DNA from: Cyanidioschyzon merolae
Taxonomy: Eukaryota
Direction: 5' to 3' (one strand)
Assembly: GCA_000091205.1 (NCBI GenBank)
Contig: AP006502.2
DNA length: 64,000 bases
This document shows, one piece after another, positions 29,822 through 53,307 of this stretch. The notes beneath the pieces were generated by a model that saw nothing but the letters and a program-made list of their open reading frames with translations, was not told the DNA's origin and did no database searches. The stretch's first letter is position 1; the number at the start of each line of letters is the position of its first letter. Made by a program: the position numbers and the translations under genes.

Positions 29822-31247
29822 CGGATTACCTAGGATCGAGTTATCGACGCTAGATAGCTCCATGAAAATCAACTCTCACATATGGTGTTTGCCCAGTGAA
29901 CCCACTCCCGATGCGGTAGATATTCGATATTCACGTCTCGCTGGGTTGCTGAAGCATACCATACCGCTTCCTTGCGTCACGCGAGAATAAATGCCCGCTC
30001 TCCCGGCCTCTGATAGTTTTCATTGCAAGTCGCCAGCGTTTCGGACCAGCGCCTTCAGTGAGTGCTAAACGATTCCATTAAAAATTTGCTTGGAACCCGG
30101 AGCCTCTCGACGTTTCACCAGCACGAGTCATCTCCCTATATTGATCCAGGGGTTCAGGTCTGAGCTAAGAAAGGGTCTGCGCGCATGGCTGCTCGTGAAG
30201 TTGCATCGTAGCGAGCCGCTCATCGTAGATCGCGTCTCCATCTGACGTTCGCGCAGCTTCTCCGTACAACATATCGTGCGTCTGTCTCTGTTTCAAAGTT
30301 ATCGTCGCCGCCTATTTCAGTGTGCACTCGTGGTCATGAAGCTTGTACGCTATCCTATAGTAATCGATGGGCACTGTATACAATCGATTCCAGCATTCGT
30401 TGAACGCTGTCGATCAGGGTGCAGGATTCCAGCCTATACGATCCAGAGCTCGCCCAGCGCCATAGGTTATCACCACACGAAGCGACCTGTAGGTCATGAC
30501 CTTTGCCTCCGAATCGAACAAGTTGACGAATGAACGCTTCTTGCCTCCATACGACGGAACTCACTGGTGACCGAGGCGGAGTCTCACGCAATCCTGCCGC
30601 AATTCGTCCGCATGAACCACTGTTCGTGCTTATGTACGCTCTTAGAAGGAGGCCTGCAAAGCGTCCTTCGATGTTCGAATCGGTGCTCAGCGCGCCGCGA
30701 CGGGGCTCGCCGTCGACATTCCACTTGTTGGCGGGCGCCCTGGAGTCCTCCAAGCTCAGCTCCCCATAATGCCGATCCCTGGAAAATTTGAGCCCATTCA
30801 TCTGCCTCCCGTTCGGGTTTTCCGCACCTGACCCCAAAGTATAGGGGAACAGCTACGGCTATGTTGATCGTAGACTAGGGATGCGCACGCACCGCGACAT
30901 AGTTCTCTTCACCTAGCTTAAACAGTTGGTAACGAGTCTCTGTCTGTTCGACGATAGCCTGGTTTTCACGAAATGCACACTGGTGGATTTACCGTCGGTC
31001 TCGATTGTCTCTGAATATATCATCCGATTTCCTCATTGCAAACAAGAAACGTTGATCGCGCTCCGCCAATGCTCTTGGCATTGTCGTTCGAATGCTTCAC
31101 ATCTGGACGCAGAGATCGGCCAAAGTTTTCCTGAAACGGCCATGCAGCGCAACCCGCCAGTGTCTATGGTGATGGAATGAGTCGTGATATGAAGTATTGG
31201 GACTACATCGGATCGACGCCAGATGAGGTCAGGACACGCGCACATGG

Positions 31248-32643
31248 GAAGCGAGTCTGCACTGCTCGACAGAGGGCGCTCTTCCTCGACATGTCATCGC
31301 GCGAGATGCATCGCGCTTCGCCATCATGTACTAGTCATCATCCGGATATGACTTGCGTCCATTCGAGCCCGAAAGCATCGCCATCAGCTTGGGTGTACAG
31401 TGCCAACGCTCGCTTTCGTTCCGGCATCTCTATCAACGTCGCGACGACCGTGAGCGTTTCCGTCGCCGCTCGCAAGTCGTTCGCCTCCGTCGACGCCCAC
31501 GGGATCTGTGTCACCAGTCGCCACTCTGGGAGGCGAGTATGATGATTCCACACAAGCGTCCATGAAGCGCTTCATACAGCGCTCGGCATGGATCCGCGGA
31601 TTGTTTTCCTTTTCGAGGCCTGCTCTGATACTTTCTGGTACCTGCGCTGTACGTGTTCTTATCGCCAATGCGCCGCTGCGACGCGTCGAGATGTTCTGGG
31701 AAGCTTGTGTCCAAAAAACGTGATTTTGCGGTACCAAGACCGCATTGCGTCCTCTGTCCCGAATACCGGTTGTGCTGACGCTTGAAAGTCAGCTCGAAAG
31801 CTTTCAAAAGAAAAACCGACAGCTGGGCGCCCTGCCTCCTGAACTCCTACGAACAAGCGCCTTCTGGGGTACGTCACAGCGAGGGAGCGTACGCAAGGCG
31901 TTGTCGAGAAACACGCTACGCGATCCCCAGTGGTGCCCTGTGTCTCCGTTTTCGGAAGTCTCTCCCGCATGATGCCCGCTAGTAGAGAGGATTTGGCAAT
32001 GGTTTCAGACTGCGGTGCCTGCTTCGACGTCTTTTCCTCGCTGTCGCGCCGCGTCTGCTCCGTGGAAGGAGCCCGCTCTCCTCTGACAGACGCTTTTTCT
32101 CATTTTCACTTCTACTTGGCGGCGCGGCATGCGTGTCATTGCTATACATCACAGCCGTTTTGATCATCGTTACTCAGAAGCATCCCTCGGACAGTGAGTC
32201 CGAGACGTGCCTGTTCTATCTGTGCCTGTATCCATCTGCAACGCCTCATGCACACGCTCGTCACCACCTGCTGCTGCAAGCACGCCCGTGGTCCCAGGCG
32301 CGCCTTTCCGCTGCACCCTCTCGCCCGCTCGCACGAACCGAGAAGCAATATAGTAGCCCAGGGATGCCGAAGGTAGAGCGAGGCGTGCCGAAGAACGGTT
32401 TGTTCGTGGACGGCGCCAGGGATACGCACGACTCGTCTACCGATCCCGGAGCGTAGCATGGGCGCAGGACAACACAGAAGCCATCTCCAACTGGACCGAA
32501 CACAGGAAAACACGCTGACCCAAAGAGCAGCCTGATGAAAATCCCAGCTGGGGACTCCCTGATCGCTCCTGCGTCATGGCAGGTGACCTTCTCCAAGTGC
32601 AGGACAGGAGCATGCTGGATGGAAGAGCCAGAAAGCGCTGCGG
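31248..32643 (+). repeat. right copy of the ~1.4 kb direct repeat; partner of 19687..21083
   Basis: Same evidence as the left copy. Amino-acid substitutions and one small indel in the shared ORFs imply roughly 97% nucleotide identity. The right copy ends ~300 bp upstream of the ATG of the AK-NADK gene. Confidence 0.85.
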
Positions 32644-32940
32644 CTCCCAAGTCTATACATTTCTTATACAAGTGGACAACACGCGTTGCGGTCACCAGCA
32701 TCGTCCATGAACTCGATTTGGAATCAGCGCATCATTTTGGTACAATTAGGAATCTAATGGACAACACGCTTGGGGCCGCCACCACCTCCCATGCCTCTGC
32801 TGCGAAGGCACACGCTCTCGCCGGCATGCGCTTCTGTGGACACCACCAAGCGAGGTGTTATGACGTAGACACTGGAGTATGCAATATATCACGACGCCGC
32901 GGTAGGCTTAAGGACATCATAATCACGATTTTGAAAACAG

Positions 32941-35574: not shown

Positions 35575-38004
35575 GCAGTGCCGATTCTGAGACCTGGAAT
35601 GCGCAGACGGGACTCATTCACGCGAGCCCAGCTGAGGTCTGTGTGCTTGCCTCGCACACTATCCACGCAAATGTCCAGAAGAGTGGCATTCAGACGAGTT
35701 GTGGAGTCCGCGCTTCACCTTGCACCCAGTTCATGGAGGCATCAGGCAGTGTAGATGGGGCGCAGATACCGCCAAGGCTCGGCGCGCCCGGGCGCTAAAC
35801 ACTCTACAGACCCCGTATGTCCAGCGTTCAGCAGAGCAATTGCGACCTCGGCGGTGAGTTCGACTCCGCCTAGGTACCAGAAGCGCGTCGAGTCAGCGGC
35901 TAGAGGTCGCGTTGAACGTGCTTCCGTGGTCGTCGTCGTCGTCGACATCTACTGTTGCTGCTGGTGGACCCGGCGCTTTGTTGCGACGACGCATTGCCGG
36001 CCGGTATCGTCGGAGCTTGCGGTGCAGATGCCGCTCCGCAGAGGCCGCGTCTGCAGGCCAGCGTCTGTCGATAAGCGCAGGTGCAGTCGCGTCCAGGCAC
36101 TGGAGTCGTGCTGCCAGTCGCGTCGTAGTCGCACGGGGTCTGTTTCGTGGGGAGTGTTCGTGGCCGTTGCGCGGCTGCGGATGCAACCACAGGGTCCAGT
36201 TTGGTAACGCGCACCGCATCCGCACAATGCAACTGTCCAAACAGACACCACAGATACGTATCTCTCGCGTGGGAGCACTGCGACGCGCGTCTGCAGCCGC
36301 AGGCAGGCTATCGACTATGCAAGTCGTGCGGTTACGAGCGCGTAGGTCAAGCACATCGCCTCGGTCGCATGTTCTGGATGGGGGGCTCGTTACTGCCACT
36401 GGAGCAGTCCGGATCAGCGCGTATCTCCATTCACTTGACTTTCCATGTTTAGAGTTGCGTCGGGTTACTGGTTTCAGGCAAGAGATGCCGACTTTCATAA
36501 ACACGAACACATATCACATGACCATTCTCGAGCGCAACAATCCGCTCACAACCTCTTGAGCGCGGAAAGAGCGTGCCACAGCATTCCCAAAAGAAGCTCT
36601 CAAACCGGAACCAACCTGTCCAGTAGAGTAACGAGATTAGACTCCAGGTGTACGGAAAGAGAAGCAAGGTAAAGATCAGGAACGCGTAGTCGTAGCGAGC
36701 TGGATGGATGTCGTTGAAGACCTTCACGACGCGGGGAACTGCGCCGCTCCACGCTGCCGGTGCCGGGGCTGTCGTAATCGTTGCCGTAGAGGCCCCGACC
36801 GACGCATCGACTGCGTCCGTGGTCGGCGTGCCGTCGGCTGCAGGGCCCACAGGCACTTGCGTCAGGCGATGCTCGCGAACCGTTTGCCAGTAACCGTAGC
36901 GATGCCGCTTCTGCCAGTCCGCAACGTACGGCGGCAGAAGCGCACCCTCGGCACCCGCGAGCGTCGAGCGCTGACTCGCAGCGTCGGGTCCCAGGCACGG
37001 ACCCGCTGGCCAAGCTGATGCACCCTCCCCGGGACCCAGTTCTTCACCGCAAACGAAGCAGCGCGAGTAGTACTGCGACAGCGGTAGAAACACGAACGAT
37101 TCTGGCTCCAAAGAGTCCGCGTCCGCGGCCGGCGTCAGAGGCGAGGCCACCAGACGCGGCTGGTGCAGCGCCGCGGCACTGTTCCCCGCGAATCCTCAGC
37201 CGTCTAGTGGCTCAAGCGGCTGGGCTCCAGCCGAAAGACGCTGGACGCCCCGTCCAGACCTGCTGGTTTGACGCTGACCTCCTGTGCGTTGCGTCGACGC
37301 ACCCCCTCCGACGAACACATGCACGCGCTCGTTTGCATCAGAAGCTTTGGACGTTGCCCGATCACCTGGTCCAGCTACTTTCCCCTGATCACCGTTTATC
37401 ATGTGCGTTCGTCTCGGTTGGTGGCAAGTTCTAGTCTCTCTGCCGGTTCACAGCGGTCTCTGGCGTTCCAGACTCGCCCAGGATACCGCCTATGAATGCA
37501 GCGCGGACGTCCGGCAGCGCTCCCGGCGGTGGTATCCGTTGACGCAGCGTCGAGGGATGATGAGGCGGCGACGATCGACGCCACAAACCCGCAGAGGATC
37601 GCATGCTCCGTTGGCCTCGGGAGTCCTAGTAGCGGCATATTGCTCGAGCTGGAAGCTTCATATCGCAAACATTGCTATAGGCGCCACTGCTGTCGCTTTC
37701 GGCAGGCTCGGCACACGACAGGACGTAGGAAACGACCAGAATATCCGAGACGAATTATAGGTAATGGAACATGGAAGTAGGGGGTTGATGGATACTTTAC
37801 AGTGCACTGAAAAAAAAGCATAAAGAAAGAAGGAAGAAACGCGCATAATCGGAGAACGCTGGCGTAAGTAAACGCTCTGTCAATGAAAAAAATCGCAAAC
37901 ATAGCATGGTATGGTCTTTCAACTGGATTTTGGTTCATAACAGCTGAGTGGAATCGAATGCTTGTTAACAGTGCATTGCTGGAAGTCCTAATCACGGTGC
38001 AGTG

Positions 38005-39440
38005 TATACTCTGGATCCTAGTCGAATTGTTTGTAAAATGGATTCTTTATTGAATAGTGCACGGAGGACGGCATTCTACATTCAGGTCAGTCTTACGTCT
38101 ACCCTCAGATGGTTGACGAGCACTAAAAGAGAAAAGTACATGCGCTCCGCGTCAAAAACCGACAGTCTCAAAGAGTTCTTGCGTTCAATGATAGAAAATG
38201 ATTCGTTGATCATCGAACTGAAAGCAATAAGCGGCGAGTACAGCCACCGCCGGTATCTATCTTTCTAAACAGCTTGCTCCTTTAGCCCTGAATACACTGG
38301 GATACAGTGGGAAAAAGGTCCTAGTTCACGCACGGCCATCTTGCACGGAAATCCCAACGATTACAACGTTCCTGGAACTCAGCGACCGGTTTGAAACACA
38401 AGGACATCGGTTTGTTTTTTAAGACGGCGAGGCCTCATTCGGATGAAACGGTCGGAGCTTATATGCGTACTCGCCGAGCATGCATCCCGTTTTATATACA
38501 ATCGAACTCGAGGGGAATGAGGACATCATCTTCCGTTCAAGCCGCAGTGGACTCATTTGGCGGCTACAGTTTCGCTTATAGAGAAAGCGTATTCAACAGC
38601 ACCAACCACCTTGTCGAATCATGGAAGACTTGTTCGCTGACGCCTGGCGACGCTCTCCTAGTGATCAACTTGGTAGTTCACAATCCCCGCTGCGTCCCCG
38701 CTTTCGTGGATACTATTGAGGTAGAGCTGCTTTTCATTCCAGCGTACTCTTCGAGCTTAAATCGTATCGAAAGGAGTGTTTTCGCTCGTGACACGTAATG
38801 ATCACCTCAGAAGGCGAATCGCTGAAGCGCTTAGCACACATTGATACCGGGAGACATGTCGCCTTTCCCCTGCAAGTCCTTCTCCATCCGGAAGGTTCTC
38901 GCCTTAATGCATAAAGAAGTGAGTTCATTTGAATGAAAAATTCATGGGAACGGTATAGCCATGCAAGTCAAGGATCACGGGAGGCCGCTGTCGCCGGGTA
39001 CCTCGAAAAACGGAAAAATCCTAGGCTCGCCGACTATCGATCGAAAAAGGGTATCTGACGACGACGACAACGACGACAACGACGACAACGACAACGACCA
39101 AGAAGAAGAATAGAGGCGATAGACGAGAATAGACGTTCGCCCGACGTGACAATGCCGAGACTGAAACGACACAGAGGGCACGAGTTCCACCTATGCTCCC
39201 AGTGGTGCATTCCACCGGCGGCAATAAACACATAGAGCTCGTGGACCGGGACTTCAACGCTGCCATCAATATCAGACGACTTGTGGCGCTGAAGACGAGA
39301 CCCGCGGAGCTGACACGATCTAACTTTGCGGGGCAGCCTCTCAGGCTCGAAATGTGCTTGGATATACTGAAACTGATTGCAGGCGGCGAGGCGAAAAGGC
39401 TGGACGTCGTCTGCGACTAGGTTAACAAACTTACCCTCTA
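38005..39440 (+). mobile_element. composite non-autonomous element (copy X-D): Tc1/mariner-like terminus plus DDE-transposase remnant, joined to the 3' fragment of a TnpB/Fanzor-like gene
   Basis: The 5' end CAGTGTATACTCTGG is the inverted complement of the conserved 3' terminus of the TnpB-like copies. Frameshifted ORFs 38002..38268 and 38391..38798 retain ...LLFIPAYSSSLNRIERSV. This resembles the FLPPYSPDLNPIE third-acid-residue block of Tc1/mariner/IS630 DDE transposases. ORF 39193..39420 encodes ...HIELVDRDFNAAINIRR..., a TnpB RuvC-III motif. The whole arrangement is duplicated at 50476..51860. Confidence 0.6.
39057..39110. repeat. (GAC)n/(GACGACAAC)n microsatellite followed by (GAA)3, inserted inside the X-D element
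   Basis: The run gacgacgacaacgacgacaacgacgacaacgacaacgac is read from the sequence. It is absent from the paralogous copy Y-E. Confidence 0.8.
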
Positions 39441-39518
39441 TAGTTGTGAAATGTTTATCATTTTGCAGATTATAGTTAGGCGTATGTTCGCTGAACGCCA
39501 TTCTACAGACAAACGACG

Positions 39519-40480
39519 CCAGCAGTGTACAGTAGTGGCGAGAAGCCCGCCCTAGACGAAACGTCTCCAACTGACGTGCAGACGCCTCCCCGTCATTTTG
39601 GACCGGCCACCCAATACTGCCTCCAACTTTTTCTCATGTAGTTCGAGTTTGAGAAGTTGTCCAACAAAGTTCTCTCGTGTGAGTTCCGGAGGTCTCATCT
39701 CCAGCACCGCACATCTACTTATATTGATAGCGGCGTTAAAGTCTCGGTTCACGAACTCCACCCGTTTCTTGCCACTGATCGGACTAATTAATGCGAGTAG
39801 TCCACGAACGTTCGCCCTCCTTTCCATTTGCTCCTCCGTCAGCGGTCCGTACTTTGCTATTTCCTCAGGGCTCCTCTGGCGCTTCTCCATCTCGACCCTT
39901 TGAAGTGTGCACCCCAGTTCATGGTGTGTATACGATGTTCGGAACTCATCTATCGGGGTTGTAACGAACCGCCATGCGCACTCCTTGTACGTTCTTGTCG
40001 TTGGAGCTGGCATAGTCCCTTTTTGGGTCTTCCATCGCCCTGCTCCGCACGCTACTATCAGCCTCTGACTTTGATTCTCTTTGAGGGCACTCAACTGATT
40101 GAAAAAGTCCGCGAACGCCCGCTCCCTCTACCCGTATGGATTCATACGCAGACGAGCCAACCGAGGCTTCGTATACTCCTCCCAGAGCGCATCCCAATGC
40201 GCAACGCGAACATCCATGAATTTTCGAAAAGCTTCAAAGTCCGCTCCTCGGCTCGTGACCTCGCTCAAAGCTGCCAGGTGATCCTTCATTCCTGAATTCC
40301 AATTCTCGATTTTCTTCCTCGCATTCATTATACCGGATTCTCGATCGTATTTGGCTCTCGAGAACCTCAAAAGACGCATGTCTTTCCGACGCAAATTACC
40401 GTCAGTGCCATCTTCCGAACGCTCCGGGCCTGCACCTTAGAGATATTCGGCGCCAGTTTGCCTCAGCTGGGCATGCTCTG
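39519..40480 (-). mobile_element. TnpB/Fanzor-like element copy A, 5'-truncated; conserved 3' terminal region ending ...CGCCACTACTGTACACTGCTG
   Basis: ORFs 40128..40394 and 39552..40094 sit in the same frame, separated by a single TAG. Together they encode ...RESGIMNARKKIENW..YKECAWRFVTTPIDEFRTSYTHHELGC...VEFVNRDFNAAINI. This matches the C-terminal half of TnpB (the (V)xVxP..TSxxC zinc-finger region, then RuvC-III D-x-NAA-x-NI). Homology to copy B stops near 40470, just before the 3' end of the SET gene. Confidence 0.65.
39552..40394 (-). pseudogene. TnpB/Fanzor-like RuvC nuclease pseudogene (copy A): in-frame TAG and missing N-terminus
   Basis: I translated the junction by hand: ...RLRMNPYG, then TAG, then RERAFADFFNQLSALKENQSQRLIVACGAGRW... 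continue in one frame. The stop falls in the segment that aligns to TnpB RuvC-II (IVIEDLNVAGMLRNRRLARAI). Confidence 0.6.
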
Positions 40481-40498
40481 CTGCGTTTTGTGACGGAT

Positions 40499-41917
40499 TC
40501 ACCGCTCCGCCGATACACCACTGTTCGTCGCATGCCCAGAGTGCTGAGGATGGGCATGCCCGAGCTGCTGCAGCGCACGCTCCAGAATACGCTTCTTTCC
40601 TATGCGAAAGCGCCGCGCCAGCTCCAATCGCTGGTTGCTCGGCTGCCATTGCTCATCCTCAGTGAGCGTCGTCGGCTTGCGCGCGAGCTCTTCGCGAATC
40701 AGTGCTATCAGACCAGTCGCCGAGAGGTGTTGGACCGACTCTGGATTGCGCACGCGGCCTGTCGCATCGAAAACGATCGTCGTCTCTGAGGCATCGTCCC
40801 AGAGCTTGTACGTGTCGTGCGGGTTATCCTCTTCCACGAATCCGTACAAAGCCAAAAGTTCATCGTTGGTCAAAGTGCCGTACGATATGAAGACCTGATC
40901 GCCTGCATGCGTGTCTCGATTGCTTATGCTGAGCGAAAAAGCATCATAAAAGTACTCATAAGCGACCTTCGATTGGACGCGAGAAGAATGATTGAAGAGA
41001 TCAATGAAAGGTGCAATGACATACTTCTTCAACGGTGCACCCTGCATGGACTGATAAATGCGCGGGTACAGCGCGTCAAATACGAGCTGCGACAAGACCA
41101 CCACCAGAAAGACGTTCAGTGCTGCGAACGCGTCCATGAGATGAAAGTTCCAGCTCGCTAGGGAAAGTGCCCCAGCGAAACACGCCTGACGCCAGCGTTC
41201 ACCGAATGGCGTCGTCTCGGAGGGTCCGCTGAATGCGCGCGTGACAACGACGTTCAACGCCCACTGAAAGTCCTGTTCGCTGAATAAACCTCCTCGCACT
41301 TTCAAATCGATTCCGCCTCGTTCGAATGTCTGCCGCACGAACCGACCATAGAGATCCTTCCATTTTCGTTCCTGCTCGCTGATAGCCCGCAAAAGACAAT
41401 CATACTGGAGCTCCCGACGTTCTGCATCTGTCCAGTACAGAGGCCGCTCGTCAAATGTTGTCGGCAAGAGACGGAACCAGGGCGAAAGTGTGCAGTTAGA
41501 CGCCGATACTTTGGCAGGGCCTCGACGCTGGTTTGGCCGGATCTCCCAGCGCTTTAATTTGCGACGCAAGACAAGAGTCTCTAGCTTTCGAGCAGACTCA
41601 GGATCTGCTTTGTACCGCTCGAAAAGCAACAGAAGCGCGAGACGAGCGTACCAAGGCGCCTGCTTCCAGAACATGGGCGCGCAGACCTCTTCTGGCAGAG
41701 GACAACCTCGTCCGCTATCATCGGAGCGGGTCTGCAACGCCAGAAACCCCGGCACTCGAGCGAGAATCGAACCTGCAGGCAAGGCGGTTTCAGCTCTGAG
41801 GCCGCGTAGGTGCTCGCGGCCAAAGTGCGCAATGCTGAGTTCAGCGGTTTCAATGCCGGCGCCTTTTGCCCACTCCATAAAGCCGACCTCTATGCTATGA
41901 TCATTCAGCGTTGTCAT
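40499..41917 (-). CDS. SET-domain protein-lysine N-methyltransferase, SETD3/SETD6/Rubisco-LSMT-like
   Basis: The ORF is open up to 42634, but the SET-family N-terminus (MTTLNDHSIEVGFMEWAKGAGIE...GRGL-type start) begins at the ATG near 41917. The C-terminal part holds IAPFIDLFNHSSRVQSKVAYEY and VFISYGTLTNDELLALYGF, which are the SETD3/6 and LSMT hallmarks. The upstream 240 codons of open frame are most likely non-coding 5' region. Confidence 0.8.
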   Translation of the reverse strand: MTTLNDHSIEVGFMEWAKGAGIETAELSIAHFGREHLRGLRAETALPAGSILARVPGFLALQTRSDDSGRGCPLPEEVCAPMFWKQAPWYARLALLLLFERYKADPESARKLETLVLRRKLKRWEIRPNQRRGPAKVSASNCTLSPWFRLLPTTFDERPLYWTDAERRELQYDCLLRAISEQERKWKDLYGRFVRQTFERGGIDLKVRGGLFSEQDFQWALNVVVTRAFSGPSETTPFGERWRQACFAGALSLASWNFHLMDAFAALNVFLVVVLSQLVFDALYPRIYQSMQGAPLKKYVIAPFIDLFNHSSRVQSKVAYEYFYDAFSLSISNRDTHAGDQVFISYGTLTNDELLALYGFVEEDNPHDTYKLWDDASETTIVFDATGRVRNPESVQHLSATGLIALIREELARKPTTLTEDEQWQPSNQRLELARRFRIGKKRILERALQQLGHAHPQHSGHATNSGVSAER

Positions 41918-42609
41918 ATCTAGCTGTGGCGAATGCCTCGTGGCTTCCCTGGTCCATGTATTCTGCTGGGGTTCCTCGCCCGCTGTACTCCTTTGGTGCT
42001 CGCGCGTGTTGCAGTGTTCGCCGCTTTTTTCTTCGCCCAGCTCTCCCTCTCGAGATAGCGTCGCACGCACGCTGGACCGGAAACGAGTCATCAACCGATT
42101 ACACGGAGAGAGGGCCGGTCCGCTGCACACGGACAACGCCACCGGGCACCGTTGCTGCCACACGGTCGACGGCAGCAGCCACGCAACGGTCATCTGGTCT
42201 GGTTCAGCTCTACCAGAAAACAAAAGCATAGTCCCAGTGAGTGACAACTGATCCGACGCAGCCTCACTCGAAGACGCAATCACACGCGCACCTCGCAAAA
42301 AGCAGAACCGTTCAGTGGACGACAATTTCGGAACGTCGCAGGTCACTGCGAAGCTATGATGCGCTGTGCCGCTGCGCTCCAGAGTTGCAAACACTCGCCC
42401 GTTCTTTCGGGGCGCAGCGTAGCCCGGTGCTCCAGTGTGCTTCCAGAGGTCCTTCTTGTACGTCTGAAACGTTTCTACGAAACCACTGAACAGCTTTCTA
42501 TCGTCCAACACGAAACTCAGGAGCTTCAGTCCTTGAGCGAACGAGCATGAGCTTCGTGCTCGCGAGCAGTTCGAGATAGGACGTTTTGGATCAAACGAGG
42601 ATCCGTCGC

Positions 42610-43829
42610 TGAGTTCGCGCACCCCTGGAAGCAAACGCCTTTCGAAAGTCGAACAACAGCGGTGTACAGTAGTGGCGGCAAACGCGCCCTAGACAAGAAG
42701 TCTCCAACCGAGATGCAGACGCCTCCCAGGTTTTTTTCGACCGGCCACCCACTACTGCTTCCAATCTTGTCTCATATAGCTCGACTTTGAGAGGTTGTCC
42801 AACAAAGTCCTCTCTTGTCCACTCTGGAGGTCTCGTCTCCAGCACCGCATATTTCCTTATATTGATTGCGGCGTTATAGTCACGATTCACAAACTCCATA
42901 CGTTTCGTGCCATTGATTGTAATTAATAATGCGAGTAGCCCTCGCACTTTCTTCCTTCTTTGCATTTGCTCTTCCGTCAGCGGTCCGTATTTTGCTATAT
43001 CCTCAGGGCTCCTCTGGCACTTTTCCATCTCCACTCTCTGAAGTGTACAACCCAGCTCATAGTGTATATACGATGTTCGGAACTCATCTACAGGTATGGT
43101 AACAAAACGCCTTGCGCACTCTTTGTATGTTCTTGTCGTTGGAGCTGGCGTAGCTCCTTTTTGGGTCTTCCAGCGCACCGCCCCATACGCTACTACGAGC
43201 CTTTGATTTCATTCTCCTTCAGGGCACTCAACCCATTGAAAAAGTTGGCAAACGCCCGCTACCTCCCACCGTATAGATTCATACGCAAACGAGCCCACCG
43301 GGGCTTGGTATACTCCTCCCATAGCGCCTCCCAGTGAGCAACACGAACTTCTATGAATTTCCGAAAAGCTTTAAAGTCCGCTCCTCGGCTCGTCACCTCG
43401 CTCAAAGCTTCCAGGTGCTCTTTCATTCCTGAGTTCCAAGTCTCGATTTTCTTCCTCGCATTCATAATACCGGATTCTCGATAGTATCTTGCTCTCGAGA
43501 GCCTCAAAAGACGCATGTCTTTCTGACGTAAGTTACCATCAGTCCCATCTTCCGCACACTTTGGTACAGCGATGGTTATGATGTTCGTATTCCCAGGGTC
43601 CGCGCCAACGACAAAGTCGTTATCCTGCACCTCCTGCATCGCAAGATCCGCACCCTTCTCATCTACATCCTTCGCCGAGCCGTCTACAAGGTTGTACTTT
43701 TCCACTTCCTGCGTCGCAGGATCCGCATCCTTATCATCTACATCCTTCGCCGAGCCGTCTACAAGGTCGTCATCCTCCACTTCCTTCGTCGCAGGATCCG
43801 CATCCTTCTCATCTATATTCTTCGCCACG
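42610..43829 (-). mobile_element. TnpB/Fanzor-like element copy B, the most complete copy, frameshifted; it forms the left arm of a head-to-head palindrome with copy C
   Basis: ORF 43259..43828 encodes acidic 25-aa repeats, then FVVGADPGNTNIITIAVPK (a RuvC-I GxDxG motif) and RLLRLSRARYYRESGIMNARKKIETWNSG. ORF 42591..43178 encodes ...RWKTQKG..YKECARRFVTIPVDEFRTSYIHYELGC...MEFVNRDYNAAINI. A 1-nt deletion relative to copy A sits between them, giving tcgtagtag. The conserved 3' tail cgccactactgtacaccgctg lies at ~42656. Confidence 0.65.
43610..43829. repeat. 75-bp tandem repeat, ~2.7 copies, encoding the acidic 25-aa repeats at the N-terminus of TnpB-like copy B
   Basis: The unit atccttcgccgagccgtctacaaggtNgtNNtNNtccacttcctNcgtcgcaggatccgcatccttNtcatctac is read directly from the sequence. 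The protein repeat is VDGSAKDVDDKDADPATQEVEKYNL. Confidence 0.75.
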
Positions 43830-44880
43830 GGCGAAGCCGAGGACGGACCAGGAGGCGAGCCCGACGGCGCTGGAGGCGCAGAAGAACGCGTTTGCCGTTG
43901 GCGTGGACTCTGCGAACACGAACATCGTTACCATTGCAGCACCCAAGCGTGAGGAAGATGGCTCTGTCGGCAACTTATGTCAGAAAGACATAAGACTGTT
44001 GAAGCTCTCATGAGCGAGATATTACCGAGAATCCGGTATAATGAATGCGACGAAGAAAAGTGAGACATCGAATTCAGGGGTTAAGTGAATTTGGAAGCGA
44101 TCAGCCGGGTGACGAGCCGCGGAGCCGATATTTAAGCGTTTCCAGAGGCTATGAGCACTCACGCATCTGAAGTCGAGAGCCTTTGGAAAGAATGCACAAA
44201 GTTCAGGTGGGCTCGTCTGCGTATGAACCTGTACTGTAGGAAGCAGCGAGCATACGCCAGCTTTTTCATTCAATTGAGCGCCCTCAAGGAGGACAGGAGC
44301 CAAAGGCTCGTAGTAGCATACGGGGCAGGTCGATGGATCACCCAAAAAGGGTGTACACCAGCCTCCAACGACAAGAACGTACAAGGAGTGCGCACACCGT
44401 TATGTCAAAACACCTTTAGATGAGTTTCGAACATCTTCTACACACCACGAGCTGTGTTGTACACTTCAGAGGGTCGCGATGGAGAAAAGCCAGCGGCTCG
44501 CTGACGGAAATGCAAATGGCAAGGAGGGCGAAACTTCGAGGACTACTCGCTTTGGTTAATAAAACTAATGATAGGAAGAAACGAATAGAGTTCCTGGACT
44601 GAGACTTTAACGCCGCCATCAGTATAAGGAAATGTGCAGTACTGGAAAGAAGACCCCCGGAGTTGGCGAGAGCCAACTTTGCGAGGCAACCTCCCAAAAT
44701 GGAGTGATACGAGAAGAAGTTGAAACCAGTAGTAGGTGGCCAGTTGCGGAACGCCGGCACAGGCGTCTGCACATCATTGGGTAGACAATCGGTCTACGAC
44801 GGACGGTGTGAGAAACGCCACTCCTGTACACTGGCTTTCCAGCGTTTCTCTTTTGCAAGGCGTTTGGTGGTGTTTCCAGA
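43830..44880 (+). mobile_element. TnpB/Fanzor-like element copy C, heavily degenerate, inverted relative to copy B and abutting it head-to-head
   Basis: Conceptual plus-strand translation from 43831 gives AKPRTDQEASPTALEAQKNAFAVGVDSANTNIVTIAAPKREEDGSVGNLCQKDIRLLKLS*ARYYRESGIMNATKK..., which parallels copy B. ORF 44151..44423 contains LSALKEDRSQRLVVAYGAGRWITQKG. Downstream lies DFNAAISIRKCAVLERRPPELARANF. The 3' tail ...aaacgccactcctgtacactgg lies at ~44815-44838. Confidence 0.6.
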
Positions 44881-45103
44881 GGCGAATTGTTTATCAAAAA
44901 CGTCTTCTATCGATCTTCGAAACCAACGTGCTGCTTCCTCTGTGCGGCACGGGGCGTACGCTATGCGCTTTTCTGCTGATTGACAGCGGAAGCGACGAGT
45001 CCGGTTACTGCCTTGAAGACTTAGACGCTTTGGAGAGACCATCACGTGGATTGTTTCAGTTTTCTGACCTCCTCCTAACCACCACGCTCGGCTCTCTGTT
45101 GCA

Positions 45104-46073
45104 ATGGCACGCGCAGCAGCTCTCATGGCAGCCAAAGCTGAACCCGGGCATCGAGAGAGTGGAAAGCTGCATCAAAGGTGGCGCAAAGCCAAGGAAGCCG
45201 GTCATCTAAGCAAGCTTGCATCGCCTGCAGAGCTGCGAGCACTCGTCCAAGCGAAACTGACACCCGAGGAGCAAGAGCGTTTCGGGATGCAGTGTGCAGG
45301 GCTGGCCGCCAAGGCACTTGAGGTACTCGACAAGTCGCTTACATCTTTAGAGCAAGACATAGAGAGCGAGTCGTGTGACTGGGAAATAGAATCGGACGCT
45401 GCTATGGACCGTGTTGCGAGACGATTCCTTGCCGATCTCGAACAGCTAAAGCAGACTGGCAGCACGCGTCGACTCACCCAACTCAGTATTTGGCGTCGCA
45501 TCAGTCGCTATGTCTTACTGGCGGAAAGGCGAGCATGAACTGCAGGCTGAAGGCAGTCCTTTTGTGAGGCAAGTCGCGAAGATCGCGGACCAGGCATCCA
45601 AGACTCCGGAATACCGCCAGGTCGTTGCCTGCGGGCATCTGGAAGAGCTCGCAGATGCGGCAACTGCAGATGGTGTATTCGGTTCGCAGTCGCGGTCGAT
45701 GTCACGTATCTTACGTCGCCCAGAAAGTCGGTTTCGACTCTTGCTCACGAAACTAGAGCTTGGTGAGGAGCTCTGCACACGCGACGAGCGGCGTTTGATG
45801 CTGGCATTGGATACCTCTGATGCGAGACTTGAACCCGAACGCATGCGCTCGAAGAAGAGGGCACCTGGTGGAGCGCAGGATGGCGCCTCTGCAAAGCGCG
45901 ACCACGGGAGGTCTGCATCCGTTTCGTCGTCGTCGTCGTCGTCGTCGTTAGAGCCAGAGCACGAGGACGACGTGCACCCAGCGGCCAAGAACGCGTCTTC
46001 CGCGAGAAAGAAAAGACGACATCATCGGCGACGATCATCCAACAAAAACGAAACCCTGGAGAATCCTCAGTAA
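45104..46073 (+). CDS. hypothetical basic/Ser-rich, probably nuclear protein, encoded as two overlapping ORFs (45104..45538 and 45510..46073, different frames)
   Basis: Both ORFs begin with genuine ATGs. The second ends in a KKRRHHRRRSS basic cluster preceded by a poly-Ser run encoded by (TCG)n. The 29-nt overlap suggests either a short intron, a frameshift or two separate genes. No domain was recognised. Confidence 0.3.
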
Positions 46074-47067
46074 GCTAGCATTTGAGCGAGATTGCTGCCG
46101 AATCATCGCCGTGCCCTGGCCCTGTGGATATCGCATGATGCATCGTTTACAGCGTTTCACCCATGATACCGGGTGGTGATTATCGCCGCCGGAATACCTC
46201 AGGAATAGATCGCGGATCGTTGGAGGCTACGCTCGCGTCCATCGCGTGTACCATGTGCTGCAAAAGTGGTGCTTGTCTGCAGCTCCACAAAGAGCACATG
46301 ATCGCGTGCTGTGCTGCGAGCACCACGGCGCCGGCCTCTGTCGGCAAACGCGCTCAAAGGCGTACTCGCGACAAGCATGAATTCAGCAGGAATATTGGCG
46401 CTGGTTGAGGCACTACGACTGACTATCGAGAGACCAGTCTCAGCAACCGCAGCATGCGTCGATCACTGGGGCGCAGCTTAAACTCCAGCAGCGATGCGGC
46501 CGTGTCAGAGCCAGACCTGCAGACTAGTGGACAGAGCGCAGCATGCCTCATTCTGGATTTCGCAGAAGTACCCGCCAGAGACGCTTTTCAGGGTAGCCAG
46601 TGGCGGATCGCGTCTATTTCGCTACCGGGAATTCGGACGGATTCCGCGTCCAGTCGACCGGGGACGGTTCACGCTTTCCACTCGGACGTCAACGCGTTTC
46701 ACTTTGGCGATGAAGGTGCTGCATTCATCCACCGACCAGTCTGCATGACGATTCGACGAACATGGGGCGGAACCTTTGATGCATACCTCTGGAGCATGAT
46801 TCGCAGAGGTGTACTTTTTTGCAGGTCGTCGAGGTGGAGCGTGTGGCGAGAGCCACATATTTGAGCGACCTCGCACCGGGCGTGATCCAAGACACCATTC
46901 GGCTGATGCTCAAGCGTGCCTCGCGTACCCGACATGTCGTTGCTCACCTTCGTGATGCTGGTGTGCTTCTGTGGGTAGCGCACTTGCGCCCGTTTGCGAA
47001 GCGTAGCGGACCTTGAGGACAAGTGGCACGCTCCAGCAGCCATGCGCTTGCATAGGTCATGCATTCA

Positions 47068-50000
47068 TCATGTGATGCTTTCCAAAGCAGCACCTAGGGC
47101 GTGGTCATCAAACACGTCGTGGAAATCCCAGAACTGTACATTCCAGCGGGGGTGGTAGCGTCGACACCAGCGCTCAAACCCCTGGATATATGCGGGTCGC
47201 AGGTGCGCATCCAAAGAGTTCCGGAACGCCACCATGGACTCCTCGATGATCGAGGGATCCATGAGAATGCTCCCCGACAACGGATCCAGCATCACCTTGA
47301 CCGGAACATGCTCATAACCCCAGAAAGGCAGTTTCGTCACGATATCGCCGACCGCTGCCCATCGGAATGAAAACGGCACATGTCGCTGGAACGCTGCGGC
47401 GAAAGCGCGATTCCCGACTCGAGGCGACCCAAAAGTCACACTCATCACCAGATCCGATGACAGACGCAACGACTGTGAATTCTCAAAACACGTCATATCG
47501 AGGGCAGCGATGGTTGCCAGGGCCCCGCCGAGAGAGTGACCGCAAAAGATCACCGGTTTGTGGTTGCAAGATGCACTATCCAAGGAGTTCATCGCACTAC
47601 ACGGTTGCGCTTCGCTCGCATCTGCTGCTGCTGCTGCTGCTGCTGTAGCAGTTTCGCTTCGACACCGCGCTGCGGTCTCTCTACCCACTAAGCTCAGCTG
47701 CTGTTGCTGCTGCCCGTGTTCACAACCGCCATGAATATCTGCACTGGACACCTTGGGAAAGCGGTTCGATGGTTGCACGCGCCTATCCAGGCTGGTAGCG
47801 ACACCACAAGTGGCATCGCCGCAGGTGCTGCTCAAGGGCGCGCAAGCCGCATCCACTGCGGTTGGTGCAGTGCTCGAGGGCTTCGCAACAAGCGGTTTCA
47901 GCGTCTCCATTAACTCTTCACGCACGGATAAATAGGCGTGCAAAAATCCACCGTGCACCATTGAAGGCAATCGTCGCCCTATGAGATACGAAAAATCGTC
48001 ACCAGCCTGAGCGCGAAAATCACCAAAGCGCAGGGAACGGATCCCGCGTACGCTCAGCATATACTGCCACCATCGTCGATGTGCAAAACGGCCTCCAGGA
48101 TCTAAACCGAGTTCCTGTGACAGGGCATCATCAAGACCGCGCTCTATATCCGAATCGTCCTTGGCAAAGGCCTCCACTGATGCCTGGTGCTTCCTAGTCG
48201 AATCTATTTCGCGCTTGCTGTGTGTTGCGGGCGGTATTTGCGAACAAGTCGCAGCCGAGGTGCCGCTACGCCCGGCAGCCAAGGCAGTGGTGCTTACAGC
48301 ATTCGTCGTACGAGGCATTCGAGTTGTACCGTCGACAGTCGCTTTCGCCGGTGACTCCCGCAACGACCCGCGTTGACCGTGTTTGCTGCAGGCGCTCAAG
48401 CGCCACGTATCCTGTATTTGCGGACATTCACGTGCATGCAGGTGCTCCTCGAGAGGAACCCGTCGGACATTCATATCTGTGCGTAAATTTCTGGTGCTTT
48501 TGGTACCGCGAAAGCTCACCACAATCCTATCCGCCAAGTCAATGACGAGCACATGTACATCTGTAACGGCGCTGGAGATATGCCGCACGACTCGTGCTTG
48601 CAGGGGGTCCATTTCGCCCACACCATAATGATTGAACATCTCTGCATACATATGCGGGTCATGCCACGGTCGATAGGACAGGTACGCCATGTTGAAGATC
48701 AAAACATGCGTCTCGAGGACAAGTGAGCGCGAGAGCCAGCTGTCTCCATTTCGCAGTGCTTCCTGCTCAGTCTGGTAGTAGAGGTTTGCTTTGCGCAGCT
48801 CTCGCTCTGCATCCAGTGCGTCCGCTGGCCACGGTGCCGCCTGGCTGGCGCTGTGCGCGGACAACTCCCACTCGGAGGAAACGCTCCTTTGTGGGGCTCG
48901 CTTTTCTTGATATGCAGCTGGGTCCGGAGCCAGCGCAACGATCCAGGGCAGCCAAACACCCAGCACTGTCGGAGGTAAATGCACATAGAGCAGGAGCACC
49001 GACCATGTAAAGAGCATCGCGAAGGCACCACCATTGAATCGTGCAATACCCAGCAACCGCAACGGTACGCCATCGAGGGACGCGTTCGCGCTGGGTAATG
49101 GTACCAGGCCCACTGCGATGGTATCGTTTGCAATCAGGAATATATAGGATATCGCAGTAAAGACACGGTAGAAACGAGCACCCATTTGTTTGTGATGACA
49201 ACAGGTATACGGCAGCTGCTGGAGCACTCGGAAGGTGCGGTAGAGCTCCATGGCAATCCAACCATCGAGGAAAATGCGCATGGTAACCACGAGCGCAAAC
49301 GTAAGCGAGTAGGCCACTTGTTGTTGGTGTCCACGCATAGCAAACTGAACCAACATGCCCGGCCAGGTGAGTCCTAACGCCGTTCGAGACCAGCCGCAAA
49401 TGGCTGTCTCCACGGCGGCGATGATCAAACAGAGACCAAATACCACGCGGTTTCGTTCTAGAAACGTGTGGCGATCCTTAATATCACGATAAAGTCGTAG
49501 AATAGCCATGGCGTGTCCATAAAAACCAAATATCCAGAACCATTGCCAGACCAGGTCGGAGACATAGAGAATGGCAATCGTGGTGCCGCTCGCTTCCGAT
49601 ATCGTTCGTGCAATATTGCCTATAATATTCATCGTAAAGAATATAAATAGACCTTGTAGGAAGCAGCTGCGCATTTCGAAGGTGCAACGGATCCATCCAT
49701 ACCGATAGAGACGCAAAAAGTAGACGATCGTGAAAGTAAGCTGGAGCACGCAAAAGCAGTACACGACGACGCGGTCAACGAGGTTGAGTGCCGGGAGTGC
49801 CGCTTCGAAACGGCGTGCAAACAGACTCATTGCTAGCGTGTAGGTGACGGAGAGCACGATTGCACTGCATAAGTTGAGAATTTGCCAAGTTACCTGCTTC
49901 GAGGATAGCGTCTCAAGGAGGAACTTGGCTTCCTTTGGATCGCTTCGAATCTGTGGTGGAGCAAAGAAACTCGACAAACGACTGCGGTGACGTGCACTGC

Positions 50001-50118: not shown

Positions 50119-50475
50119 GAGGGCAGCGTGCAAGCAGAATTAGAGTTGCATATTGTTCGGTACCCGTGCACTGCAGTGCAGAGTATACGGACCACGAAGC
50201 ATGAATATGGCAAAGAAGGTTCGTTTTTATGTATGGAGCGGTGCGTATGCGCATCCGCTCACACACGTTCACAAGCCCCAAGTCGGCTAGCTAAGGATTC
50301 CTGCACTGCACTGCACTGCCGTTCTTGGTCGTTCGAATTCGCAATCCAGAAACGCATCCCATGCGGACGCTCGAGACGCTCTCTGCTCACCAGCGCAACT
50401 CCATGAGGCTCCATTCCTGCTATGCGTATTCGTATGCTATGTTGATGTGTATAGCAGAAGGTCGAGATGTAGAAG

Positions 50476-51860
50476 CAATGTGCTGTATAGATCGTAGACG
50501 AATAGAATGTTAGATATATATTCTTTACTGAACAGTGCAAGGAGGACTGCATTCCTCGTTCAGGTACGGTTCACCACAGTATTCAGATGGACGAGGAAAA
50601 CTGAAATAAAGAAGCAAGTACATGCGATCCACACCGAAACCAGATATACTCATAGCGTGCTTGCGTTCACTGGTAGAAAAACGACCCGTTGATTACTTTA
50701 GGGAAGGGGAAAGCGACGATAATACCCATTACCTCTATCTATTTTTCTCGCCAGCTAATTCGTGTGATCCTGAATGCACTGGCATACAGTCGCGATAAAG
50801 TCCTGGTTCATGCACAGCCGTCTTGTATCGAATTCGCAACGACAGCGTTCCCGGAACGTCCCGATCGGTACGAAGCACAGAGACGTAGCTCTGTCTTTTT
50901 CAGACGATGCGACTTTCTTTGGCCGAAATGGTCGGGGCGTACATGGGTAGTCGCGGAGATGGAGCCAGCTGTATGTATGATCGAACTTGATGAGAGCGAG
51001 GACATCATCAACTGTTTCAGCTGCAGTGGATTCATTTGGCGGCCGCAGTTTCGCTCAGAGAGAAGGCTCGTCGAACAGCACACACTGTACCGAATCATTG
51101 AAGAAATTTCCCCTGACGTCTGACGACGTCGTCCGGTTGTACGGCTTGGTATTTCACCATTCCCCTTGCGTTCGAATGTTTGCTGATTCGATCGGGGAAT
51201 AGAGCTGCTTTTCATTCCTCGATATAATCCGTGGTTGAGCCCCATAGAAAGTGTTTTTTCTATTATGAGACGTTTTTAATGCTCAACGGGGCGAGTCGCT
51301 GCAGCGTTCAGCACACATTGGTACCTGGCCACATTGTGTCCTTCGTCTGCAAGCCCTTCTCGCTCCGGTTAGCTCCTCATCTAACGGCATAAAGAAGCGC
51401 GCCATTTGAAGAAATAAGAAATCCAAGGGATGAGCTGCGGTGTACACTTCAGAACATCGAGATAGAGAGAAGGCAGCGGAGCGCATCGCGCGATAGAAAA
51501 GTACGGAGAGCTGACAGAGCAGTCAATGGTACTGAGTACTCGTGTTCTGGCAATCCTTGCATGGGTGAGTTCAACAAGCGGCATTATATGCGAGGAGTTC
51601 GTGAAACGAGACTCCAACGTCACCTTCAGTATCCGACGATATATAGTGCTGAAGAAGAGAACCGAGGAGCTGACGCGATACAGGTTTATGGGGCAGTCTC
51701 TCAGACTTGAGGTGTGCAGGAGGAAGCTGACGTCAATAGGTGGTGGTCGGTCGAAAAAGGCTTCACCTCTGCGAAAATTGCTTCGCCCATAACTTGCGTT
51801 GGAAAAGCAAAATCGCACACATGAAGACTTTGTGATTTGAACATGCTGTTGTTCGGGAAA
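50476..51860 (+). mobile_element. composite element copy Y-E, paralogous to 38005..39440: Tc1/mariner-like transposase remnant joined to a TnpB-like 3' fragment
   Basis: ORFs 50507..50692, 50689..51123 and 50987..51202 parallel copy X (LLNSARRTAF..., ...AAVDSFGG.SFA.RE...). In copy Y the transposase C-terminus has decayed to ...ADSIGE-LLFIPRYNPWLSPIES. ORF 51526..51792 encodes EEFVKRDSNVTFSIRRYIVLKKRTEELTRYRFMGQSLRLEV, a decayed RuvC-III region. Nucleotide homology with X-D can be followed across the junction, as in gaRtcgctgMagcgYtYagcacacattgRtacc. Confidence 0.55.
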
Positions 51861-53307
51861 CAACAAGATGAAAGGCTTGTGCATATGCATCGGATAAGGA
51901 TTCGGGTTATTTTAGGTACCCTTGTTCCAGCGTGTCGCGAATGATCTTGATTCAGAGGTCGTGACGAATTCCAGCGACAAGGCGTCATTGAAATCACTCT
52001 GAAAAGACGACAGAGCATTTGAAAACTGCATATGAGTCCGAAAGTCCTTACTGCTTCTCCTCAAACGCCGAAGTTGACCATTTAAAAAAGTTGGGAAGAG
52101 AAAAATGAAGAGCAGCAACAGAGCGACTAGTTCAGAGTTGCATGTGAATCTCGCAGTGGTTTAGTGCAGGTTACCCACTTGGAAAAAGAAGCAGCTTCGT
52201 GCGACCGACTGTATGCATCTACTTCGACGCACGCTGAGCGCGGAGAGCTAGGTCGACATGTCCATAGGTATCTTTTACAGCTTTCGATCCTGCACAGCTT
52301 CTTCCATTGCAGGTCTGCGGGTACTCGGAGTCAGCTACATGATTAGGTTCGAACGCAAATTACCCTCGATTGGAAAGAACTTCCATGATATCCTTGTGTA
52401 GAACGGCCTCTATACAGCAACGCAAAATCTAATGCAAGCTATCCATTTTTAGAAACGTAAAACTCATGATGAAATGAGGCAGCAGGCTGGCGCTCGTCAG
52501 CAGCCGAAGCAACATCGAATTCGAGATCCGCAGGCGGCTAGCCTCGGCGAGAACACCCGTTTTCTCAGACGCTGAAATGCGAACCGCTGTACAGCGGTTT
52601 TTCGGATGCGACCCGTTGTGCTGCGGCTGCGGCTGCGGCTGCTGTTGGCCGTAACCCTTCTGGTGACGCGCAGTACCGAACGCATGTCTTTGAGAACGAT
52701 TCTGACGCTGCTGGTTTTGCTTTCCGTATCGGGCACTATAACGCTCCTCGTTTTCGGAGGTCTATTCAAAGCAAAGTATCCTTACTTGGGTGACTTTGAA
52801 GGCGACTATGCAGCAACTGCATCCGTTTGTTTCCAAAGTGCGCTTGCTTTCTCTGCGCTTGGAGCAGCCAGTGCGCTTGGTTTGCCGCTTGTTCACTGGT
52901 GGTGGGAAAGACGCTTGGCGCGGAGACGGGCGCTGCGGTCATTGGAAGACCCCTCAAAAAGCGCACGTGTCCGCTTCGTTGCTACCTCTTCGTTTTGATA
53001 CTAATGCGCCCAAGAATCCCTCCCTGTCTACCAACGAGTACAGGGGGCGTGCTAGCTACGTGCGTCCATTCGTATCGCACTTCGTGTCGTGTGGCGAGCG
53101 CTGAACCACGCTCTCTCGCGAGGCCATGGACAAAAACGGTAGACTCCTTGTACAAAACTTCCTCGATCATTTACTGATCTTCGTTTCTAAACGGTTCGTA
53201 TCGAGAACCGCCGCCACGGGAGCACTCAGCTTCGCGAGAGCATCTCTTCGCTATCTCTTCCACGTGTGAGGGCAAAGTGCCTGTCAAAATCTCGGGACAC
53301 ATCTGCA

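Follow-up and report, generated by a model that had tools for sequence, protein, structure and literature searches.

Two composite repeats, here called X and Y, lie on the + strand of a 64,000-nt stretch of nuclear DNA from chromosome 20 of the red alga Cyanidioschyzon merolae 10D (the window; contig AP006502.2). Each copy consists of a leader, a decayed transposase open reading frame (ORF) of ~304 codons, a short spacer and the remains of a Fanzor1 gene of the CMe-1A family. We conclude, with a probability of roughly 80%, that X and Y are neutral fossils of one Tc1/mariner-type (DDE_3, DD34E-like) transposon family, in which two independent deletions of the Fanzor gene were followed by spread and decay. 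The point of comparison for the nuclease portion is CMe-1A, a C. merolae Fanzor1 element with a 3169-bp consensus, a 734-aa ORF and ~150 copies, which was described with no terminal inverted repeats (TIRs), an undetermined target-site duplication (TSD) and unknown class (Bao & Jurka 2013, PMC3627910). In the consensus taken from the supplement of that paper, the ORF occupies nt 906-3110. The deletion carried by X is referred to as type A and that carried by Y as type B, and the parts of the two copies are as follows.

37910..38001, + strand: 5′ leader of X, placed by the left-flank multi-copy alignment; its first ~76 nt are homologous to CMe-1A 786-862.
38002..38914, + strand: transposase pseudogene of X (Tc1/mariner-type, DDE_3), complete but decayed, with a GTG start (ATG in the family) and TAA at 38912-38914.
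38915..38954, + strand: intergenic spacer of X; the family consensus spacer is homologous to CMe-1A 869-905.
38955..39056, + strand: Fanzor start remnant of X, with ATA for ATG and then N-terminal codons; CMe-1A 898-969 is matched and the rest is weakly similar.
39057..39098, + strand: microsatellite of X, (GACAACGAC)x4, from TRF.
39099..39173, + strand: stretch of X across the type A deletion junction; its similarity to CMe-1A ~2760-2839 is not significant.
39174..39499, + strand: Fanzor 3′ tail of X (CMe-1A 2840-3084, RuvC-III VDRDFNAAINI) and diverged 3′ terminal region, abutting the inverted CMe-1A copy F1.
50391..50477, + strand: 5′ leader of Y, from the left-flank alignment, its start uncertain by ~±10 nt.
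50478..51392, + strand: transposase pseudogene of Y (DDE_3), complete but decayed, with ATG at 50478 and TAA at 51390-51392.
51393..51429, + strand: intergenic spacer of Y, placed by alignment to CMe-1A and related loci.
51430..51879, + strand: type B junction and tail of Y, with the Fanzor ATG fused to CMe-1A 2737 and colinear to 3071 (window 51762).

Self-comparison of the window identifies X and Y as real paralogues on one strand. The initial annotation had described two same-orientation copies ~12.5 kb apart, and pairwise alignment puts the distance at 12,478 nt. The transposase parts (38042-38938 and 50520-51414) are 70.5% identical over 919 columns (E 4e-40), and the nuclease tails (39235-39357 and 51595-51717) are 74.8% identical (E 1e-10). 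The extents first given for the two elements, 38005-39440 and 50476-51860, are too narrow, since multi-copy alignments of both flanks place the true ends outside them, at ~37910-39499 for X and ~50391-51879 for Y. Homology between copies begins ~90 nt before the transposase start codon (~37910 in X, ~50391 in Y). On the right, most tails are diverged but colinear to a common terminus at ~39499 (X) and ~51879 (Y). The diverged terminal region of Y closes with gatgaaaggc (51867-51876), similar to the TTTGAAAGGCG at the end of CMe-1A, and the right ends of two related loci, L027 and L028, track CMe-1A up to nt 3145. The two segments that frame the transposase are likewise shared with CMe-1A. The composite-left consensus (first 76 nt) aligns with CMe-1A 786-862 at a score of 67 against a null of 23±3 (z = 14), and the family-consensus spacer (~40 nt) aligns with CMe-1A ~869-908, directly before the Fanzor ATG (z = 7.2).

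A decayed Tc1/mariner-like transposase had been proposed for both copies, and this identity is borne out by matches to the Pfam family DDE_3. The X ORF 38391-38798 alone reaches E 3.8e-4 (20.8 bits, below cutoff), and a family consensus, built as the majority of 12 copies, reaches E 1.1e-19 (71.2 bits, cutoff 28.6). An exhaustive HMMER search yielded intact relatives, themselves with Pfam DDE_3 matches. After frame correction, the translations of X and Y align to residues 13-264 of two of these ~300-aa proteins (P0175 and P0184) with E values of 1e-24 to 1e-38. The opening of the transposase reads MY.LD.R.I.C, like that of the intact proteins, and a conserved TAA ends it in both copies. The remnant is the whole ~304-codon gene and was not cut by the Fanzor deletion. 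The earlier picture of a transposase truncated and joined to the nuclease by deletion is thereby set aside, as the entire ORF and the spacer behind it are kept.

The 12-copy consensus restores three catalytic motifs (VDETSFGRNG, LLDNVAFHH and PPYTPWFNPIEG), giving a triad of VDET, LLDN and NPIE. The corresponding residues in X are SDET, VINL and NRIE, with the second D lost, and in Y they are LAEM, LYGL and SPIE, with the first and second D lost; both transposases also have many stops and frameshifts. Because the catalytic-motif lesions are absent from the consensus, they look copy-specific. Because the consensus has three DDE motifs and passes DDE_3, the masters that spread were probably transposase-competent. 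In the intact relatives the catalytic spacing is DD34E-like by eye, and these proteins match the transposase of PUl-1 from Pythium at E about 1e-18 with 23-27% identity. For the N-terminal paired-like HTH DNA-binding domain, matches to HTH_Tnp_Tc3_2 fall below cutoff, both on the consensus (E 3.8e-4) and on three intact relatives (9e-7 to 4e-5).

The nuclease remnants belong to the CMe-1A family by nucleotide and protein comparison. The X tail at 39212-39351 is 74% identical to the CMe-1A consensus (E 9e-22), and Y is 68% identical to it over 51430-51762 (E 1.5e-31). In tblastn comparisons with the protein CMe-1p, X gives 49% identity over 82 aa (aa 640-721) and Y gives 52% over 90 aa (aa 632-721) together with a weaker 31-aa segment. 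RuvC-I (GADPG) and RuvC-II (VDEFRTS) are deleted in both copies, and RuvC-III is all that stays, as VDRDFNAAINI in X and decayed to VKRDSNVTFSI in Y. The initial annotation had read this portion as a nuclease 3′ end with a zinc finger and RuvC-III. The RuvC-III tail stands and the zinc finger does not, the corresponding stretch of the CMe-1 consensus having only two Cys (HELGCTLQRVEMEKCQRS...RGLLALV) rather than a C4 set. One Cys is left in this region of Y and none in X, and the distant relative L037 has RGLLWCSS. Pfam searches of the Fanzor proteins gave no match for CMe-1p or the L034 ORF (see below) and a chance-level match for the L037 ORF; the DUF8286 (PF26935) label on Fanzor proteins comes from precomputed annotations only.

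X and Y differ at their deletion junctions. X matches CMe-1A 898-969, the Fanzor start included (z = 8.2), and its tail is demonstrable only from 2840. The Fanzor start piece is also found at loci L007 and L012-14 (z = 16 and z = 8.7) and reaches nt 1007-1017 in L007/L012. A homology of X 39099-39173 to CMe-1A ~2760-2839, suggested by eye, was dropped after alignment gave no significance (z = 1.8 for X, where the alignment falls at 39174-39229; 0.0 for L007; -0.3 for L012), and the type A tail is accordingly placed “at or before 2840”. In Y, a search for the Fanzor N-terminal piece scored 29 against a null of 26.6. The Y tail starts exactly at CMe-1A 2737, with the ATG at 51430 standing in for the Fanzor start codon. 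Type A thus lacks about CMe-1A nt 1020-2760, and type B lacks 909-2736. Because X keeps 898-969 and Y keeps 2737-2839, neither is derivable from the other by deletion. Judged by these junction sequences, X and Y are two independent deletions, both inside the Fanzor gene. The single shared breakpoint on which the initial annotation was built is thus contradicted by differing junctions, the very observation it had named as counting against itself. Its remark that X has a microsatellite absent from Y was correct. By eye, this microsatellite lies at the position where L007/L012 have GACGAAGAAGAAG, and it appears to have grown out of a GACGAAGAAG (K/E-rich) stretch within what is left of the Fanzor N-terminal coding sequence.

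Both junction types recur elsewhere. A metagenome scan with a three-sequence transposase alignment returned 27 loci, among them the X locus itself (L017 and L031, 99.2-99.3% identity), and loci with sufficient downstream sequence show the transposase followed by a Fanzor tail only. The type A junction of X is found at L007/L010 and L012-14, and the type B junction of Y, exactly at nt 2737, at L015/20, L021-23, L026/30/32 and L027-29. Left flanks are unrelated between loci in the multi-copy alignment. Judged by their flanking genes, copies are spread over at least three chromosomes of C. merolae 10D, with exact matches to TCP1-beta BAM83286 (1.62-Mb chromosome), aarF kinase BAM78768 (422-kb record) and PFK BAM81047 (867-kb record), and matches of ≥90% to adenylate kinase BAM83334 and CMT387C. 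Because each junction type recurs at other loci, both derivatives spread after deletion. The earlier proposal that the deleted derivative itself spread therefore holds for each junction type, at several unrelated loci, and fails only in routing that spread through one shared breakpoint. Compared in pairs, the transposases are mostly 67-73% identical in a star-like pattern, and three copies are more divergent. X and Y, at 72%, are no closer to each other than to other copies, and a neighbour-joining tree of the transposase DNA is star-like as well. These identities are consistent with a single old burst and subsequent neutral decay.

Some of these loci have peculiarities of their own. By eye, the majority of composite tails fall into a diverged subgroup, with CCGATAGCAGGGGGCCGG, for instance, in place of the GCAGTAGTGGGTGGCCGG of CMe-1A. 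The type B copy L027/28 has a CMe-1A-like tail instead, 80% identical to nt 2737-3145, a hint that the two element types exchanged sequence by recombination or gene conversion. In a composite copy beside the PFK gene BAM81047, at L024 (5539-5709) and L025 (5428-5598), the CMe-1A 5′ end (nt 6-178) comes directly after the transposase remnant, where a Fanzor tail would otherwise be. L016/18/19 (in L018, nt 1-1300) represent the sister-species orthologue of the Y locus, with flank and transposase 81-89% identical to it, and have an extra ~300-nt deletion in the transposase.

The existence of a two-gene parent, with the transposase beside a full-length Fanzor, is inferred from relatives in which both genes are intact. 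L034 encodes an intact 302-aa transposase followed, after a gap of 10 nt, by an ORF of >635 aa that is 42% identical to the CMe-1 Fanzor over 610 aa (E 2e-155). L037 encodes a 297-aa transposase, a 43-nt gap and a 639-aa Fanzor (32% identity, E 1e-98). Both come from organisms other than C. merolae. For P0122 the contig breaks off within the transposase, and for P0184 and P0176, too, the surrounding sequence is too short. A second, more distant family has three pairs in the window itself, all decayed and with the transposase again ahead of the Fanzor, at 19686-21619, 30315-32644 and 10-1199 (all on the - strand). Identity to P0175/P0184 is ~26-27% for their transposase, and identity to the L034 ORF is 28-39% for their Fanzor, rising to 55% in one stretch of 29 aa. 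What remains of the copy at 30315-32644 is the C-terminus of the transposase and Fanzor aa ~145-614. Segments 19686-21083 and 31249-32644 share 98% identity, a sign that duplication or gene conversion took place recently. That three divergent lineages all have the two genes closely linked speaks for an ancestral pair and against a nested insertion. The transposase-plus-Fanzor ancestry put forward in the initial annotation is thus supported by the intact pairs of L034 and L037. Of the autonomous parent for which it proposed a search, the architecture exists in these relatives, and no full copy of the X/Y family itself was found in C. merolae or at the 27 metagenome loci.

These observations can be combined into a simple history. 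The ancestor would have comprised a 5′ leader, a transposase gene, a ~40-nt spacer, a Fanzor1 gene (a TnpB-like RuvC nuclease of the CMe-1 lineage) and a 3′ end. Each deletion would have taken out most of the Fanzor ORF, while the leader, an uncut transposase gene and the spacer survived, as did the final ~270-370 nt of that ORF together with the 3′ terminus. In type A, the Fanzor start would have been kept (CMe-1A ~887-1017 in the best-preserved copies), the tail resuming at or before 2840. In type B, the Fanzor ATG would have been joined to nt 2737, apparently at an ATG microhomology. Each derivative, still encoding transposase, would then have been copied to several chromosomes in one old burst, presumably by cut-and-paste, and every copy would afterwards have decayed alone through private stops, frameshifts and loss of catalytic residues. 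We infer this direction of events from the homologies, the junction coordinates, their recurrence at other loci and the intact two-gene relatives.

CMe-1A would fit into the same history as a third product. It is homologous to X and Y in the Fanzor start region, the tail, the leader (786-862), the spacer (869-905) and the 3′ terminus. It differs from them in being without a transposase, whose ORF in X and Y sits between nt 862 and 869, and in having 785 extra nt at its 5′ end, including TE-N2_CMe. A full CMe-1A copy at L001 has no transposase in 1.1 kb upstream. With leader and spacer present and no transposase ORF between them, CMe-1A looks like the reciprocal, transposase-deleted derivative of the two-gene element.

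Several observations weigh against this reading of X and Y. No transposase of the CMe-1 lineage was found beside a full-length Fanzor in C. merolae or at the 27 metagenome loci. The TIRs expected of such an element lack statistical support. In local alignments of left ends with reverse-complemented right ends against shuffles (X, Y and the CMe-1A copies F1-F3 listed below), the best p value was 0.02, with the shuffle maximum above the observed score, and the others were 0.07-0.67; the test windows were set before the true left ends were located. A TIR candidate of 9-10 nt, G(T/C)CTTTCAA, is seen at the revised termini by eye only. An eyeballed Tc1-like CAGTG terminus was dropped, since multi-copy homology runs ~60-90 nt further left. 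The TA target-site duplications anticipated in the flanks are not visible at the inferred ends, and no TA or other TSD is evident at X, Y and related loci, where the ends are placed to ±10 nt and the right flank of X is another element. The composite left end corresponds to the internal CMe-1A position 786, leaving the two element types without a common left terminus. Type A and type B copies do not form separate groups in the tree, so that the case for single-event deletions is made by the junctions. Finally, the sister-species loci L016/18/19 match Y only up to the ATG and continue with ~50 nt of Fanzor N-terminal codons and inverted CMe-1A fragments, a pattern explicable by rearrangement at a later time in the sister species or by a Y junction that originated, or was converted, in one lineage only.

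We considered whether the composite copies and CMe-1A might be a split, mutually dependent pair from one two-gene ancestor, with a transposase-only partner (types A/B) and a Fanzor-only partner (CMe-1A, ~150 copies) whose shared tail specifies a guide RNA and the right terminus, each helping the other in trans. If this were true, the transposase would have moved both kinds, and trans-made Fanzor protein and tail-encoded RNAs would have maintained both. It would also explain the high copy number and intact ORFs of a Fanzor family without transposase or TIRs. We regard this as an unlikely extension.

A related proposal is that the tail was retained for function alone, encoding a guide (omega/fRNA) scaffold and the right end and thereby letting the CMe-1A Fanzor act in trans. 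At least ~270 nt at the end of the ORF, and the 3′ end with them, escaped both of the independent deletions. Fanzor guide RNAs derive from this region, which makes such a role attractive, and solo fRNA copies are documented in Chlamydomonas, where 20 extra copies are reported (PMC10530073). The CMe-1A 3′ region also folds better than shuffles (z = -3.0). However, RNAalifold on 14 tails gave 11 pairs only, with no compensatory change and a covariation term of +0.14, and by eye the long stem predicted for CMe-1A seems not to be kept in the diverged composite tails. A scan of 37000-52500 against Rfam gave two chance-level matches only. X and Y resemble solo fRNA or omega-RNA copies and PATE-like IS200/IS605 derivatives in keeping a nuclease 3′ end and right end without the ORF. 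They differ in being known from DNA only, with no conserved structure or covariation in the 14 tails. Moreover, the right end is indispensable to any cut-and-paste element, and selection cannot be shown from as few as two events. Retention for function is, on balance, improbable.

It is also improbable that the transposase was never the native partner of the Fanzor and that an independent Tc1/mariner element landed in the CMe-1A 5′ leader, the chimera later being deleted and copied. In favour of such a nested insertion are a CMe-1A consensus without transposase, CMe-1A-like sequence on both sides of the ~1-kb transposase block and, by eye, a possible short direct repeat (TATAGCAGGAG ... CATAAAGAAG). 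Yet the limits of the block are those of the ORF, from ~13 nt before the start codon to the stop, with neither TIRs nor a TA duplication belonging to the block itself. Two other organisms, with Fanzors of only 32-42% identity, have intact genes in this close order, 10-43 nt apart, and the arrangement is found again in the second family of the window.

The initial annotation had favoured one identical internal-deletion derivative, a MITE-like non-autonomous element with one breakpoint at which a truncated transposase runs into the nuclease 3′ end. Both copies do have the transposase followed by the Fanzor tail, with similar spacing, and are colinear at ~70%. We nevertheless consider this very unlikely, with X holding 898-969 and a tail from 2840 vs no N-terminal piece and a tail from 2737 in Y, and with a full-length transposase ORF whose consensus, with three DDE motifs, passes DDE_3. 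A miniature inverted-repeat transposable element (MITE) is a short non-coding element, typically <800 bp, with TIRs and TSDs and without a transposase gene. X and Y share with MITEs and other internally deleted elements the internal deletion of a longer element and a multi-copy state. They depart from them in that the lost part is the passenger nuclease and not the transposase, in their length of ~1.5 kb with a full-length transposase ORF remnant, and in a consensus that keeps the DDE motifs. The MITE-like label is therefore withdrawn, and the derivatives probably spread as transposase-encoding elements instead. Local segmental duplication, with Y made from X by recombination within the 12.5-kb region, agrees with the shared strand, the 12.5-kb distance and the wealth of rearranged CMe-1A fragments in the region, but is scarcely credible when homology stops at the element ends, X/Y identity is 72% vs mostly 67-73% to copies on other chromosomes (three lower), the X and Y junctions differ and the Y locus is already occupied in the sister species.

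Our preferred reading, fossils of a Tc1/mariner-type family with two separate Fanzor deletions, has close precedents. Fanzor1-carrying Tc1/mariner elements are known, among them PUl-1 (Pythium ultimum) and PGv-1 (Bao & Jurka 2013, PMC3627910), and Mariner/Tc1-Fanzor1c associations have been documented (Jiang et al. 2023, PMC10530073). Like the presumed ancestor of X and Y, PUl-1 and PGv-1 carry a DDE_3-type transposase and then Fanzor1 on one strand, within one element of ~3.4-3.6 kb. PUl-1 has 24-bp TIRs and TA duplications, whereas none could be demonstrated for X and Y, which unlike PUl-1 are dead and retain only a minor part of the Fanzor ORF.

The surroundings of X and Y are rich in CMe-1A material, and the following three copies lie between them.

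39496..40434, - strand: F1, a 5′-truncated CMe-1A copy, 89% identical to consensus nt 2236-3169, tail-to-tail with X.
42636..43850, - strand: F2, a 5′-truncated CMe-1A copy, consensus nt ~2100-3169 at 89%, with 2.9 copies of a 75-nt repeat.
43850..44862, + strand: F3, an older CMe-1A copy, 72-77% identical to the consensus, head-to-head with F2.

The right ends of X (gctgaacgcc) and F1 abut tail-to-tail at 39490-39500 with ~4 nt of overlap, which could reflect insertion beside an existing element end or rearrangement. F2 and F3 form a head-to-head inverted pair (42636-44862) with 231 nt between the repeat arms, and both are truncated just upstream of RuvC-I. The 75-nt tandem repeat (25 aa, acidic) lies at 43611-43826, just N-terminal of the Fanzor RuvC-I, and its number varies (P0001, P0008, P0015), from a single unit in the CMe-1 consensus through 2.9 in F2 to as many as ~7 in P0001. 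The stitched F1 and F2 protein has 294 close metagenome relatives with up to 86% identity. Smaller pieces include CMe-1A nt 84-166, inverted and immediately before X (37701-37781, - strand), and a copy of the CMe-1A 5′ region nt 2-622 (= TE-N2_CMe) at 15074-15690 (+ strand), 80% identical. An 81-nt tandem array of ~6 copies, 88-93% identical, occupies 24547-25033, inside or near the ORF 24465-25217 (- strand).

A SET-domain gene (40499-42634) sits exactly between F1 and F2, a class 3 lipase gene (47068-50133) is also nearby, and five ORFs of the window match proteins of the 1,621,617-bp C. merolae 10D chromosome exactly, among them the MYB-related BAM83141 and CMT140C. C. merolae is an almost intron-free red alga, which accounts for the long single-exon genes around X and Y.

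X and Y are ordinary transposon fossils, dead repeats of a kind whose Mariner/Tc1-Fanzor1 association was already known, and because that association is documented the gain is incremental. It is in part a correction: X and Y are not one duplicated deletion product but two different Fanzor-deleted derivatives. CMe-1A, published as unclassified and TIR-less, is now linked to a Tc1/mariner-type transposase, and the intact pairs of L034 and L037 could offer material on how Fanzor nucleases cooperate with DDE transposases.

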